Assembly: GCA_015059045.1 (NCBI GenBank)
Contig: SVBD01000001.1
Span: forward strand, 135,876 to 199,875
Source: Erysipelotrichaceae bacterium
GTDB taxonomy: Bacteria > Bacillota_I > Bacilli_A > RFN20 > CAG-449
DNA: 64,000 nucleotides
Direction: 5' to 3'
Position 1 is the stretch's first letter. Each line of letters begins with the position of its first letter. The notes under the pieces are model-generated. The model did not search any database. It was not told the DNA's origin and saw only the letters and a list, made by a program, of their open reading frames with translations. Made by a program: the position numbers and the translations under genes. Of the stretch, positions 44,428 through 59,086 are shown piece by piece.

Positions 44428-45236
44428 CTAAAATAAGATAATTAATATAATTGAAGCAAAAGATAATACTAACCCAACAATGAAAAAATACATTACAATT
44501 TGGTATTCTTTAAATCCTTTTAATTCTAAATGATGATGAAAAGGTGCCATCAAGAATAAGCGTTTTTTCGTTAATTTAAAAAAACTAACTTGAAGTATCA
44601 CACTTAATGTTTCAAAAATAAATAAACCACCACTAATTAAAAGAAATATTTCTTTATGCAATATAATTGCACTTATCCCTAATAACAATCCTAAAGATAA
44701 CGATCCAGAATCACCCATAAAAATTTTGCTAGGATGGAGGTTAAAACTTATGAATCCTAAAGTCGCACCAAAACTAGAAATCAATAAATATGTTAGGTAA
44801 TATTCCTTTTCAATTAAAGAAAATAAGATAAATGGAATAACCGCCAATAAGTATAAAGAGGAACTTAATCCATCCAATCCATCAGTTAAATTTACGCTAT
44901 TAGAACATCCAACTAAAATAAATGGAAACAAAATAAATATATATTTACCAATATTGATTTTATAATCATTTAATAAATTAATATTTTCAAATAAATAATG
45001 CTCTTGAAGATAATATAAACATATCAATGATAATACTAATTCTAAAAGAAATCTGATTATCGAAGGAATTCCATGATAATCTTTAAATTTAACTTTAATC
45101 AAATCATCAACTAATCCTATCAAGAAAAATGAAGTAATCATAATTATTATTACTTTAAAATAACTATAATTATAATATTGATAATATAAGATAGTAGTAA
45201 ATAAGACACTAATGATAATAGCAACACCCCCTAAAG
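44428..45236 (-). pseudogene. mraY: mraY 3' fragment (about 268 codons), separated from its 5' end by the inserted element
   Basis: The frame is open from 44428 up to a TAA created at the element boundary (45237..45239); it encodes SLGGVAIIS...DGLDGL...MGDSGS MraY motifs; the track ORF begins at an internal Met. Confidence 0.85.
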
Positions 45237-45246
45237 ATGGTGCAAC
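45223..45246. other. Left attachment junction (attL-like): host half-site, AAAG direct repeat, then element terminal IR GGTGCAACTTAGGGATTT
   Basis: The host mraY reading frame stops here; base composition switches sharply; the 18-bp IR matches the right end in 17/18 positions. Confidence 0.7.
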
Positions 45247-45306
45247 TTAGGGATTTACGAAAAACAGTAAATTTTTGAGCGACACCTTCAAGCGGGGCAA
45301 ACAAGT

Positions 45307-45353
45307 AAAGACCACACATAAGGATAAAACCTTGTGTGTGGTCTTTCTTTTTG
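45307..45353. terminator. Strong hairpin terminator at the left inner end of the element
   Basis: Perfect 12-bp stem AAAGACCACACA/TGTGTGGTCTTT with a T-rich tail; lies just 3' of the last cargo gene. Confidence 0.6.
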
Positions 45354-45356
45354 CGT

Positions 45357-45635
45357 TTAATCTTCTCCTGTGAGCAACATCACATCAAGCATCGTTCTTG
45401 CACCGAGCCGAAACGCATACACGAATATTGCCTCTTCTGCAAGGCTGGCGTATTCACTCCAACAATCATCGAACCGTTCTAAAATATCACGTTGCTCATC
45501 GGTCATTGCTTTTAGTAGGTCTTCGTGATGCCGAGCCATATACTCCATTAACTGCTTCATCTCGGGAGTGTTGTTACGGCTATCCGATTGCGGATTTATA
45601 TTGCCGTGCCACAATTCTGCAAGCGTATTTTTCAT
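45357..45635 (-). CDS. Hypothetical 92-aa acidic protein (last gene of the cargo operon)
   Basis: Start reassigned to MKNTLAELW, which has an AAGGAGGTG RBS; no recognisable domain. Confidence 0.5.
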   Translation of the reverse strand: MKNTLAELWHGNINPQSDSRNNTPEMKQLMEYMARHHEDLLKAMTDEQRDILERFDDCWSEYASLAEEAIFVYAFRLGARTMLDVMLLTGED

Positions 45636-45722
45636 ATGCACACCTCCTTGTAGCACAACACTATACCACAGGTCTGCGCATAAGTCCAGATAACAAATTG
45701 TGAACGAAACTTTGCCGCAGAG

Positions 45723-56956: not shown

Positions 56957-57124
56957 ATGGAGAAAACCAAGGAATGCTCTCATAAGACCGAAACCGTTAT
57001 TGACGGCACGGTCTATATCGTGGAATCGGTGAGTGCCGAATCCGCCAAGGACGTGGTGTACGGCAAGGTGAAAAAGCTCATCCTTGACCACGCAAAGTTA
57101 TCCGTAAGTTCACAAGCATCATAA
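56957..57124 (+). CDS. Hypothetical small protein (55 aa) upstream of the recombinase
   Basis: Encodes MEKTKECSHKTETVIDGTVYIVESVSAESAKDVVYGKVKKLILDHAKLSVSSQAS; not in the track because it is under 60 aa. Confidence 0.35.
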   Translation: MEKTKECSHKTETVIDGTVYIVESVSAESAKDVVYGKVKKLILDHAKLSVSSQAS

Positions 57125-57199
57125 CACAAAAGACTTGACTTTTTGGCGATAGTACGGGATAATACAGTACCGCTTGAAGGCTGTCGGAAAGGAGTAAAA

Positions 57200-58852
57200 A
57201 TGAATAACAGACAGCCTACTATCGCCAAGAACGATAGCAAAATTACGGCATTATATTGCCGCCTCTCCCGTGATGACGAACTTCAGGGAGACAGCAACAG
57301 TATCATCAACCAAAAAGCCATTTTGCAGAAATACGCAGATGACAACGGGTTCGGCAACACAATGTTCTTTGTGGATGACGGATACAGCGGAACGAATTTT
57401 GATAGACCTGATTGGCAACGCCTCATCTCTCTTGCGGAAGACGGCAAGATCGGAACGGTCATCGTAAAGGATATGAGCCGACTCGGCAGAGACTACCTCA
57501 AGGTCGGTTACTACACCGAGGTATTCTTTCCGGGCGTTGATATCCGCTTCATTGCCATAAACAACGGTGTGGACAGTGCCAATCAGCAAGACAGCGATTT
57601 CACTCCGTTCCTCAATATCATCAATGAGTGGTACGCCAAGGATACAAGCAAGAAGATACGCGCCGTATTCAAAGCAAAGGGACAATCGGGAAAACCGCTG
57701 TGTACGAACCCACCATACGGATATGTAAAAGACCCCGAGGACAAAAGCCGATGGATTATCGATCCCGAAGCCGCAGAGGTTGTGAGAGAAATCTTCAGCC
57801 TCTGTGTGCAAGGGTACGGACCCACGCAGATTGCAAAGGAGTTGACACGGAGAAAAATTGAGAACCCCGTGGCACACGCTCGTAGGCTCGGCATAACCAT
57901 TCCGGCAAAGCCTCTTGATGATGACCCTTGCATATGGCACGATTCCACGGTGGCTCGGCTGCTGACTCGTGTAGAGTATTTGGGGCATACGGCAAACTTC
58001 AAGACCTACCGCAAATCCTACAAGAACAAGAAGCAGATGCACAATGACCGCGAGGAATGGCAGATTTTTGAGAATACCCACGAGGCTATCATCGACCAAG
58101 AGACCTTTGACATTGTGCAGAAAATTCGTGACGGACGGCGCAGGCTGACTCCTATGGGTGAGATGCCGATCCTTTCGGGAATGCTCTTCTGTGCCGATTG
58201 CGGGGCAAAGCTCTACCAGGTGCGTGGGCGTGGATGGGAGCATAGCCAAGAATACTTCGTGTGTGCTACATACCGAAAGCAAAAAGGCAAATGCAGTTCC
58301 CATCAAATTCGCAACGTGGTCATTGAGCAACTTCTCCTTGAGGATATCCGCAGGGTCACATCTTATGCAAGAGAGCACGAAGACGAGTTCGTAAGGCTTG
58401 TGACGCAAAAGTCCAAGCAGGAGACCGAACGCAATCTTCGTGAGAGTAAAAAGGAACTTGAGGTAGCCAAGGCTCGTATTTCCAAACTCGACAGCATAAT
58501 CCAAAGGCTATACGAGGACAACATAGAAGGCAAGGTTTCCGATGAGCGTTTCGCAAAGCTGACCGATACCTATGAATCCGAGCAAAGAGACCTTGAACGT
58601 CGCATTGCGGAACTGCAGAACTTTATGGCAAACGCAAAAAATGAGTCCCTTGGTGTGGATACCTTCCTTTCGATGGTTAGAAGGTATACGGACATCAAGG
58701 AACTCGATGCGGAGCTTATCCGTGTGTTCGTTGAAAAAATCCTCGTCTACAAAGCTGAAAAGGTTGACGGACACAGGGTTCAGCGTATTAAAATCATATA
58801 CAACGGCATCGGTGAAATACCGACAACGCCTATAAACGAGAAAACGGCATAG
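57200..58852 (+). CDS. Large serine recombinase (integrase)
   Basis: Start at [10 protein letters not shown], which has a GGAGT RBS; catalytic [10 protein letters not shown]; resolvase domain, recombinase domain, Cys-containing zinc-ribbon region and coiled-coil C-terminus; 550 aa. Confidence 0.9.
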
Positions 58853-58876
58853 CCGAATTAACGACTATGCCATTTT
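58846..58876 (+). terminator. Weak hairpin terminator after the recombinase gene
   Basis: GGCATAG...CTATGCC stem followed by ATTTT. Confidence 0.35.
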
Positions 58877-58888
58877 CCCAGGGATTAA

Positions 58889-58914
58889 AAATCCCTAATT
58901 TGCACCCACAAAAG
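58889..58914. other. Right attachment junction (attR-like): element terminal IR AAATCCCTAATTTGCACC followed by the AAAG direct repeat
   Basis: Mirror image of the left end; host mraY coding resumes immediately on the minus strand. Confidence 0.7.
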
Positions 58915-59086
58915 TCGGGGTCAATTTTTTATTTTGATGATTTTCAAATAAATAAGTGCTAATCGCTTGTCCTTTTACATGCTTTTTCTGAATTTTAATT
59001 ATTGATTTATTTAAAATTAAACTAACAACAAAAGACATAAAGAAACAACATATAGATGTTAATCCTATATACGTTTGGCTAAACAT
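58892..59086 (-). pseudogene. mraY: mraY 5' fragment (first about 58 codons plus an element-derived FVGAN tail)
   Basis: Encodes MFSQTYIGLTSICCFFMSFVVSLILNKSIIKIQKKHVKGQAISTYLFENHQNKKLTPT, matching the MraY N-terminus up to the conserved TPT(M/L)GG motif, then runs into the element IR and a TAG. Confidence 0.8.

Follow-up and report, generated by a model that had tools for sequence, protein, structure and literature searches.

A mobile element within mraY and a neighbouring deletion of cell-wall genes in an Erysipelotrichaceae lineage from a penicillin-containing culture

The cell-wall gene mraY is normally essential, and a chromosome on which it has been cut in two raises the question of how such a lineage could come to be sequenced at all. 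This situation is found in an Erysipelotrichaceae bacterium, in a 64,000-nucleotide stretch of DNA (hereafter the window; positions 135,876 to 199,875 of contig SVBD01000001.1, assembly GCA_015059045.1), where a mobile element lies within mraY. An original prediction, made from the letters of the window alone, had described a 58-codon 5′ part and a 268-codon 3′ part of the gene, both on the minus strand, about 13.7 kb apart and each ended by a stop codon at the border of the intervening DNA. Coordinates and translations agree with this description, and to see a paradox in it was the correct reading. The paradox is most economically answered by two facts that were not part of that prediction: a second lesion in the same operon, and the origin of the sequence in a culture that contained penicillin.

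Two lesions in one cell-wall operon

The 5′ fragment of mraY (58895..59086, minus strand) comprises 58 host codons, M1 to T58, ending in HQNKKLTPT and followed by five element-encoded codons (FVGAN) and a TAG stop. It aligns with nucleotides 1-184 of mraY in the conspecific contig L081, and its 63-aa product is on record in six contigs. The 3′ fragment (44428..45236, minus strand) holds codons 59-326 (268 codons), from LGGVAII to the natural stop; it has no start codon of its own and is directly preceded by an in-frame TAA inside the element. The 237-aa open reading frame (ORF) seen in six-frame translation (44428..45141) begins, as had been noticed, at an internal methionine, the first in-frame ATG, and matches Glycos_transf_4 (PF00953, E = 9e-33), while the NCBI annotation of the fragment is a 263-aa product, MBE6131926.1. 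The break falls between codons 58 and 59. It was rightly placed at a conserved motif, which in this species reads TPTLGG and not TPTMGG. When the element is removed in silico, the halves join at a TTT (minus strand) common to both and give an in-frame 326-aa MraY, 99% identical to intact conspecific copies and different from them at 2-4 residues.

Comparison with conspecific empty sites, together with a shift in GC content (35-50% in the insert, 21-25% in the host flanks), delimits the integrated element to 45237..58914, or 13,678 bp including one copy of a 4-nt core. This core, AAAG on the plus strand, is common to element and host and is present at 45233..45236 and 58911..58914. We scanned 185,579 species genomes for related recombinases and obtained 80 loci (L001-L080). 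The left end carries a terminal inverted repeat and attP half-site, ATGGTGCAACTTAGGGATTTACG (45237..45259, plus strand), and the same motif stands at the left ends of L020, L028, and L031. The right end (58877..58910, plus strand) consists of a small hairpin, CCCAGGGATTAAAAATCCCT, and then an attP half-site, AATTTGCACCCACA; it is kept in L001-L007, whose flanks diverge beyond it. The joined ends form an imperfect palindrome, CCCTAATTTGCACC-N10-GGTGCAACTTAGGG (−15.6 kcal/mol, z = −6.1), which is of the form expected for a serine-recombinase attP and is our predicted attP. The empty site, TTGACCCCGACTTTAGGGGGTGTTGC, was found in 15 of 15 conspecific loci (L081 and 14 others, on contigs with 98.3-99% DNA identity to the window) and equals the predicted attB base for base. 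Because the empty site is the predicted attB and the ends form an attP palindrome, the insertion is, judged by its sites, a genuine recombinase-mediated integration and not a chimera.

The original prediction took the division and cell-wall (dcw) operon around mraY to be otherwise intact, with a murG-like gene among its members; this does not hold. In conspecifics, the order is penicillin-binding protein (PBP), murE, mraY, type III glutamine synthetase (GSIII, 668 aa), murD (388), ftsW (352 or 365), murG (322), murB, divIB, and ftsA. Compared with these contigs, 4,645 bp are gone from the window (L081 11270..15914), with the junction at 44140/44141, 1.1 kb downstream of the element. The deleted stretch contains most of the GSIII gene, the whole of murD and ftsW, and the part of murG that encodes residues 1-216. 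The "murG-like" ORF (43822..44418, minus strand; 198 aa; NCBI MBE6131925.1) is an in-frame GSIII_N::MurG_C fusion of GSIII residues 1-93 and MurG residues 217-322, and is, by this composition, the scar of the deletion. An origin of the deletion in the activity of the element was considered and ruled out, given the 1.1 kb between them and a junction with only ATAT microhomology. As its genes read, the chromosome is without functional MraY, MurD, FtsW, and MurG at this locus, and excision of the element could repair mraY alone because murD, ftsW, and murG were lost by deletion.

The genes on either side are intact. Neither murE nor the class B PBP gene (59065..62383, minus strand; murE 59065..60402 as annotated) has gaps or premature stops relative to conspecifics, and the same comparison finds murB, divIB, ftsA, and ftsZ (39773..43829, minus strand) intact. 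The 668-aa glutamine synthetase gene between mraY and murD (L081 10991-12997; also L087-L098) makes for an unusual dcw order in the species. Private codon changes of the lineage that carries the lesions number five non-synonymous to two synonymous in murE (window 59065-60411) and two to three in mraY (44428-45236). Taken together these are 7:5, against 5:21 pooled in the other strains (Fisher p = 0.026, uncorrected); the PBP gene has 2 non-synonymous and 11 synonymous private changes. The ratios are a weak hint that constraint on wall genes is already relaxed in this lineage.

Both lesions occur together in the NCBI/JGI contig, in ENA assembly ERZ27247464, and in Logan assembly SRR7031345; Logan SRR7030982 contains the right junction only. 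Proteins that bear the lesions are on record from the NCBI contig (228,797 bp; MBE6131921-40), from a 228,887-bp contig under JGI, Logan, and ENA, and from a MEGAHIT contig in ERZ27247464. The SRR7031345 contigs pass through both junctions and the deletion unbroken, which speaks against a wild-type allele at any appreciable level there. Neither run id, SRR7031345 or SRR7030982, occurs in the study papers or their supplements, and no link to a sample name was found. A 42-nt pattern common to both alleles had no match in JGI metagenomes, a collection in which the species is apparently not represented.

The recombinase and its choice of target

The element encodes a large serine recombinase of 569 aa (57143..58852, plus strand) with Resolvase, Recombinase, Zn_ribbon_recom, and DUF4368 domains and with relatives in the 80 loci. 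Family matches are to PF00239 (E = 4e-22, residues 36-184), PF07508 (E = 2e-23), PF13408 (E = 2.5e-14), and, at the C terminus, the DUF4368 family PF14287 (E = 5e-23, residues 496-559); the motif YCRLSRDD holds the expected catalytic serine. DUF4368 is the hallmark of a multi-targeting clade of large serine recombinases that includes TndX-like transposases (PMC10083194). When the 80 related loci were searched by tblastn with seven MraY proteins, mraY sequence was found at none of them, which rules out an element dedicated to mraY. Seven loci, L001-L007, have recombinases 94-97% identical to that of the element in the window and share the element end up to ...CCCTAATTTGCACCCAC, beyond which each has a different flank, and mraY is not among the seven. 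The recombinase, whose catalysis is predicted, is by the evidence of these flanks promiscuous, with many target sites.

The many sites have a common form. The mean host flank over 63 related elements is AAGGGGGGC followed by a T-run. TTTT occurs within 24 nt in 53 of the 63 flanks and in 40 of 240 control windows (p = 1e-23), and GC at the stem positions is 0.72 in flanks versus 0.46 in controls, the T-run and stem signal being located about 20-45 nt beyond the recombinase-side end of the element. Three loci (L020, L028, and L031) show the flanks on both sides of the element, which together supply the two halves of a terminator hairpin and rebuild sites such as AAAAAGCCGCCC-AAAA-GGGCGGCTTTTTT. 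The T-runs, the GC-rich stems, and the rebuilt hairpin sites together show that elements of this recombinase family insert into the loop of an intrinsic-terminator hairpin. No prior description of terminator-hairpin targeting by TnpX/TndX-type recombinases was found in the searchable literature.

The site in mraY reads CACCCCCTAAAGTCGGGGTCAATTTTTT on the plus strand. In TPTLGG, the Pro codons (CCN) are the reverse complements of the Gly codons (GGN), and the adjacent Lys codons give a T-run. We built a target weight matrix from the 63 flanks, with the window left out, and scanned it as two inverted half-sites over 50,322 bp of rebuilt host sequence. Under each of two background models, the top score among 50,274 positions fell on the mraY insertion point (17.3 and 17.6 bits). 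By this ranking, the mraY motif was hit as the best imitation of the element's usual target in a 22% GC genome, and the insertion into mraY is due to the mimicry of a terminator hairpin by the TPTLGG codons. In the sequence of events that we propose, an element from higher-GC Clostridia, carrying its primase, capsid gene, tnpW, and methyltransferase cargo, met the codons ACC CCG ACT TTA GGG GGT, which with the Lys A-run form a GC-rich inverted repeat beside a T-run on the opposite strand. Such a repeat resembles the loop of an intrinsic terminator, and recombination at AAAG then split mraY.

A chromosome without MraY: readings of the locus

That the assembly might be a metagenome-assembled genome (MAG) was among the thoughts of the original prediction, and the window contig does belong to one: it is NODE_24_length_228797_cov_39.01, at 39x, of MAG bg0r3_ps_bin.99 (SVBD00000000, SAMN11294504, "Ery6"), which comes from Peng et al. 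2021 (PMC8007473). Sample bg0r3_ps is replicate 3 of a first-generation culture in which goat faeces were enriched anaerobically on bagasse for 5 days in the presence of 2 mg/ml penicillin-streptomycin (PMC8007473). The relative abundance of the MAG is 0.0043 in this sample and 0 in the 35 others, with zeros in six deeply sequenced pellets, in cultures with chloramphenicol or with no antibiotic, and in the fifth and tenth generations. Erysipelotrichaceae are prominent in the penicillin-streptomycin consortia and are said there to "have developed resistance"; peptidoglycan is not discussed (PMC8007473).

Loss of wall synthesis is a known route to penicillin resistance. In B. subtilis and others, L-form growth becomes possible once the synthesis of wall precursors is halted (the class 1 change), a second class of mutation is unneeded without oxygen, L-forms are fully penicillin-resistant, and a stable E. 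coli L-form has inactivated mraY and ftsQ (PMC5052740). The most probable reading, at somewhat better than even odds, is that the lineage of the window is wall-less and L-form-like, and tolerant of or favoured by penicillin; its viability and wall-less state we infer from the genes. The chromosome that carries the insertion has also lost murD and ftsW, with two-thirds of murG from its start, to the unrelated 4.6-kb deletion, and peptidoglycan would not be made because the lesions together would abolish the synthesis of lipid I and lipid II. Wall-free growth would make penicillin irrelevant, and the insertion would be tolerated or even favoured as the wall was no longer needed. Either lesion may have come first: one would be neutral once the other existed, which would let an element with many target sites establish itself in a gene that is otherwise "essential", and either of them could be favoured under penicillin.

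Laboratory L-forms offer the closest parallels. Like E. coli L-form NC-7, with its mutated mraY and ftsQ, the lineage has lesions in wall-precursor genes that include mraY. Like the B. subtilis L-forms obtained by repression of murE-mraY-murD-spoVE-murG-murB, it is affected in the same operon, with penicillin present and under anaerobic conditions (PMC5052740). Unlike both, which came from laboratory pure cultures, it was found in a complex gut-derived community; its lesions are an insertion and a multi-gene deletion, no osmoprotectant was added, and its wall-less state is a prediction from genes. In the searchable literature, we found laboratory precedents and no wall-less genotype described from a metagenome.

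Several points weigh against a wall-less lineage. It reached no more than 0.43%, in a single first-generation culture, and could no longer be detected at generation 5; the culture medium was not designed for the osmotic protection of wall-less cells. A copy of the lost genes may lie on an unbinned contig of the MAG, and a minority wild-type allele may be present in the sample. PBP, murE, murB, and divIB are still intact, and for that reason the loss of the wall, if real, would be recent.

Two other samples of the species contain lesions in murE. In ERZ27302939 (L082; 4465-5802), murE has the change K53*, AAA to TAA, and the remainder of the locus is intact; recoding of TGA as Trp was tried as an explanation of the stop and rejected, the change being to TAA. 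In ERZ28653984 (L100, XIEF21-1_SAMN15829951; 1-7196), murE has lost 43 bp between AAAAT repeats, which takes it out of frame, and the glutamine synthetase gene is frameshifted by a gap of 1 nt. Both ends of L100 diverge into unrelated GC-richer sequence, one inside orf495 and one inside the glutamine synthetase gene, and the contig may represent a copy of the locus that was displaced or is in decay. In the 12 other fully covering loci outside the lineage of the window murE is intact. The two murE lesions come from unrelated samples and are independent; if they are real, the species may have lost wall synthesis repeatedly. With the window this would make three lesion sets in a species that repeatedly loses peptidoglycan precursor synthesis in nature, its wall conditionally dispensable in vivo, and the penicillin-enriched lineage would be a natural L-form, genetically fixed and older than the culture. 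We regard this broader account as possible and unlikely.

It is improbable that the lesions are lethal or a dead end, with DNA left by cells that had ceased to grow, were dying, or had lysed (after damage by penicillin, for instance), or with an assembler that by chance took the path of a mutant subclone. Presence in a single abundance column, disappearance by generation 5, and the persistence of much inoculum DNA in first-generation cultures would all suit this explanation. However, two independent lesions are unlikely to be fixed on one molecule at 39x, which also speaks against the chance capture of a lethal insertion that the original prediction had listed. Moreover, contigs from a second assembler are unbroken through both junctions and the deletion, and a lineage undetectable in six pellets yet at 0.43% in the culture implies net enrichment.

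Working copies of mraY, murD, ftsW, and murG elsewhere in the genome, through duplication, translocation, or divergent paralogues, would allow the native locus to decay in a cell that keeps its wall. MAGs are incomplete, and L100, a 6.9-kb piece of the locus between foreign sequences, indicates that fragments of the region move or duplicate. Duplicate mraY, murD, or murG genes are, however, rare in Firmicutes. The truncated P0005 is the one nr protein named Erysipelotrichaceae bacterium in the list of the 120 best MraY homologues, in which there is no second nr-named MraY; the other homologues, examined in case one was a divergent second copy, carried neither accessions nor names. In the 90%-identity clusters of conspecific MurD, FtsW, MurG, and GSIII, no named member is present among the 15 of 21-30 members listed, whereas MurE, MurB, FtsZ, and the fusion protein of the same MAG carry NCBI names in their clusters. 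These results tell against the second copy of mraY that the original prediction had offered as one way out, and we think spare copies quite improbable.

A reversible switch, in which exact excision restores mraY in some cells or under some conditions as in skin-type elements or active lysogeny, is hard to credit. As with skin in sigK, SPbeta in spsM, and phi10403S in comK, a serine-recombinase element sits within coding sequence, and its exact excision would, in silico, restore the mraY frame; the recombinase gene is intact, and genes for sporulation-type sigma factors adjoin ftsZ in the host. Those elements, however, have a dedicated, conserved target that is dispensable for vegetative growth; here there are many sites and a normally essential gene. 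The related recombinases are not dedicated to mraY, the element is present in 0 of 15 conspecific empty-site loci, and no recombination directionality factor was identified in it. Excision would, besides, leave murD, ftsW, and murG lost. This unrepaired deletion, with the unbroken contigs of SRR7031345, also argues against the earlier suggestion of an element confined to part of the population or excising at high frequency.

Least credible of all is an assembly or binning artefact, in which a Clostridia element was chimerically joined to an Erysipelotrichaceae chromosome (the chimeric or engineered sequence of the original prediction): the GC contrast between insert and host is very large, but both junctions lie at the same 4-nt core of one attB that is intact in conspecifics, the element ends form an attP palindrome, the independent SPAdes, MEGAHIT (k141), and Logan assemblies agree on the structure, and the 4-nt microhomology at the deletion junction is too short for k-mer collapse.

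The element, its relatives, and the meaning of the locus

Next to the recombinase gene, the element encodes a TnpW-like small protein (56957..57124, plus strand; PF14202, E = 3e-6) and an HK97-type phage capsid family protein (55969..56946, plus strand; PF05065, E = 2e-57; phrog_10) with relatives in IMG/VR. These are preceded by three small ORFs of 93, 97, and 93 aa to which no function was assigned (55135..55987, plus strand) and by a replication protein, a primase-polymerase/D5-type helicase (52529..54820, plus strand; PF22763, PF19263, PF08706, PF03288; phrog_1829, E = 2e-115), whose gene has 92% nucleotide identity to L001. Upstream of the primase, a non-coding array of about nine degenerate direct repeats of 55-69 nt (51856..52445) may be an iteron-type replication origin. 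On the minus strand follow a Cro/C1-type helix-turn-helix regulator (51469..51690; PF13443, E = 3e-22) and the cargo, beginning with a DNA methyltransferase in which EcoRI-like N6-adenine and C5-cytosine enzymes are fused (49330..51441). The fusion is a single 703-aa protein with near-identical copies on many contigs and 21 cluster members. Five further cargo ORFs (45723..49329, minus strand) include a weakly AbiGii-like one (45723..47051) and four without a family match, and a DUF6809 protein is encoded at 45357..45656 (minus strand). The strong hairpin that had been seen just inside the element is present at 45307..45346, with a 17-bp stem (−30.2 kcal/mol, z = −8.35); from its position it would end transcription of the DUF6809 gene and would stop read-out into the 3′ fragment of mraY.

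The backbone of the element (52.4-58.9 kb) has 89-92% nucleotide identity with the Oscillospiraceae MAG locus L001, and the left 7 kb are cargo of different GC content. Megablast with the whole element against deposited plasmids and deposited phages gave no near match in either collection. Two related elements, L006 (SVSA01000034.1, SIG657) and L007 (SVHH01000012.1, SIG379), with recombinases 94-96% identical, are from Oscillospiraceae/Clostridiales MAGs. Their accession prefixes are in the same SV series as those of the goat-study MAGs, and the element may have been donated by such bacteria living alongside the host.

The element adds a new member to a known recombinase clade. With the multi-targeting DUF4368 clade (TndX/TnpX-like; Tn5397, Tn4451/Tn4453; Cp36, Durrant et al. 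2022) it shares the four-domain recombinase, ends that join to an attP-like site, a short identical core without target duplication, related enzymes at many sites, and a TnpW-like gene adjoining the recombinase. Unlike Tn4451/Tn4453, it carries genes for a primase-helicase and an HK97-type capsid protein together with an iteron-like array, and is in this respect more like a phage satellite. The 13.7-kb island indeed holds a phage-satellite gene set of recombinase, primase-helicase with repeat array, and HK97 capsid-family gene; no packaging genes besides the capsid gene were recognised among its ORFs. Because family searches of the ORFs found neither the Mob/relaxase family (TnpZ) nor the chloramphenicol acetyltransferase gene catP, the element, on its predicted gene content, is not filed under the Tn4451/Tn4453-type mobilisable transposons. 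The preference for terminator hairpins is a further difference from accounts of the TndX/TnpX clade, none of which mentions it among the searchable papers.

Elsewhere in the window, a Wadjet-type anti-plasmid system occupies 17508-24482 on the minus strand, with JetA (23046..24482), a DUF4194 JetB-like protein (22426..23043), an SMC-like JetC (19044..22415), and a 310-aa ORF without a family match that is a candidate JetD (17508..18440). Downstream of ftsZ (36563-39763, minus strand) lie a pair of genes for sporulation-type sigma factors and an ORF of 268 aa without a Pfam match, ordered as in spoIIGA-sigE-sigG. The species probably forms spores, whose cortex could not be made by a lineage without a wall.

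For the recombinase family, terminator targeting means that conserved coding motifs rich in Pro and Gly can be accidental landing sites in AT-rich genomes, which matters for the prediction of off-target sites when such recombinases serve in genome engineering. For the organism, a wall-less lineage, if true, would be a genome-level case of a walled gut Firmicute that escapes penicillin by giving up its wall in a complex anaerobic community, L-forms having so far been studied mostly as laboratory pure cultures. It would also account mechanistically for the resistance of Erysipelotrichaceae to penicillin-streptomycin, which the source paper left unexplained. The Mollicutes, which are wall-less and arose from the Firmicutes lineage that includes Erysipelotrichaceae, resemble this case in that a low-GC host (about 22% here) has lost lipid II genes and kept ftsA and ftsZ. 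Unlike theirs, the loss here is recent and at strain level, with conspecifics and related species holding the genes under purifying selection. A wall-less lineage would thus bear on the origin of the Mollicutes from this branch of the Firmicutes, and a natural L-form, if the lineage proved to be one, would let the step from which they came be modelled in a living bacterium.

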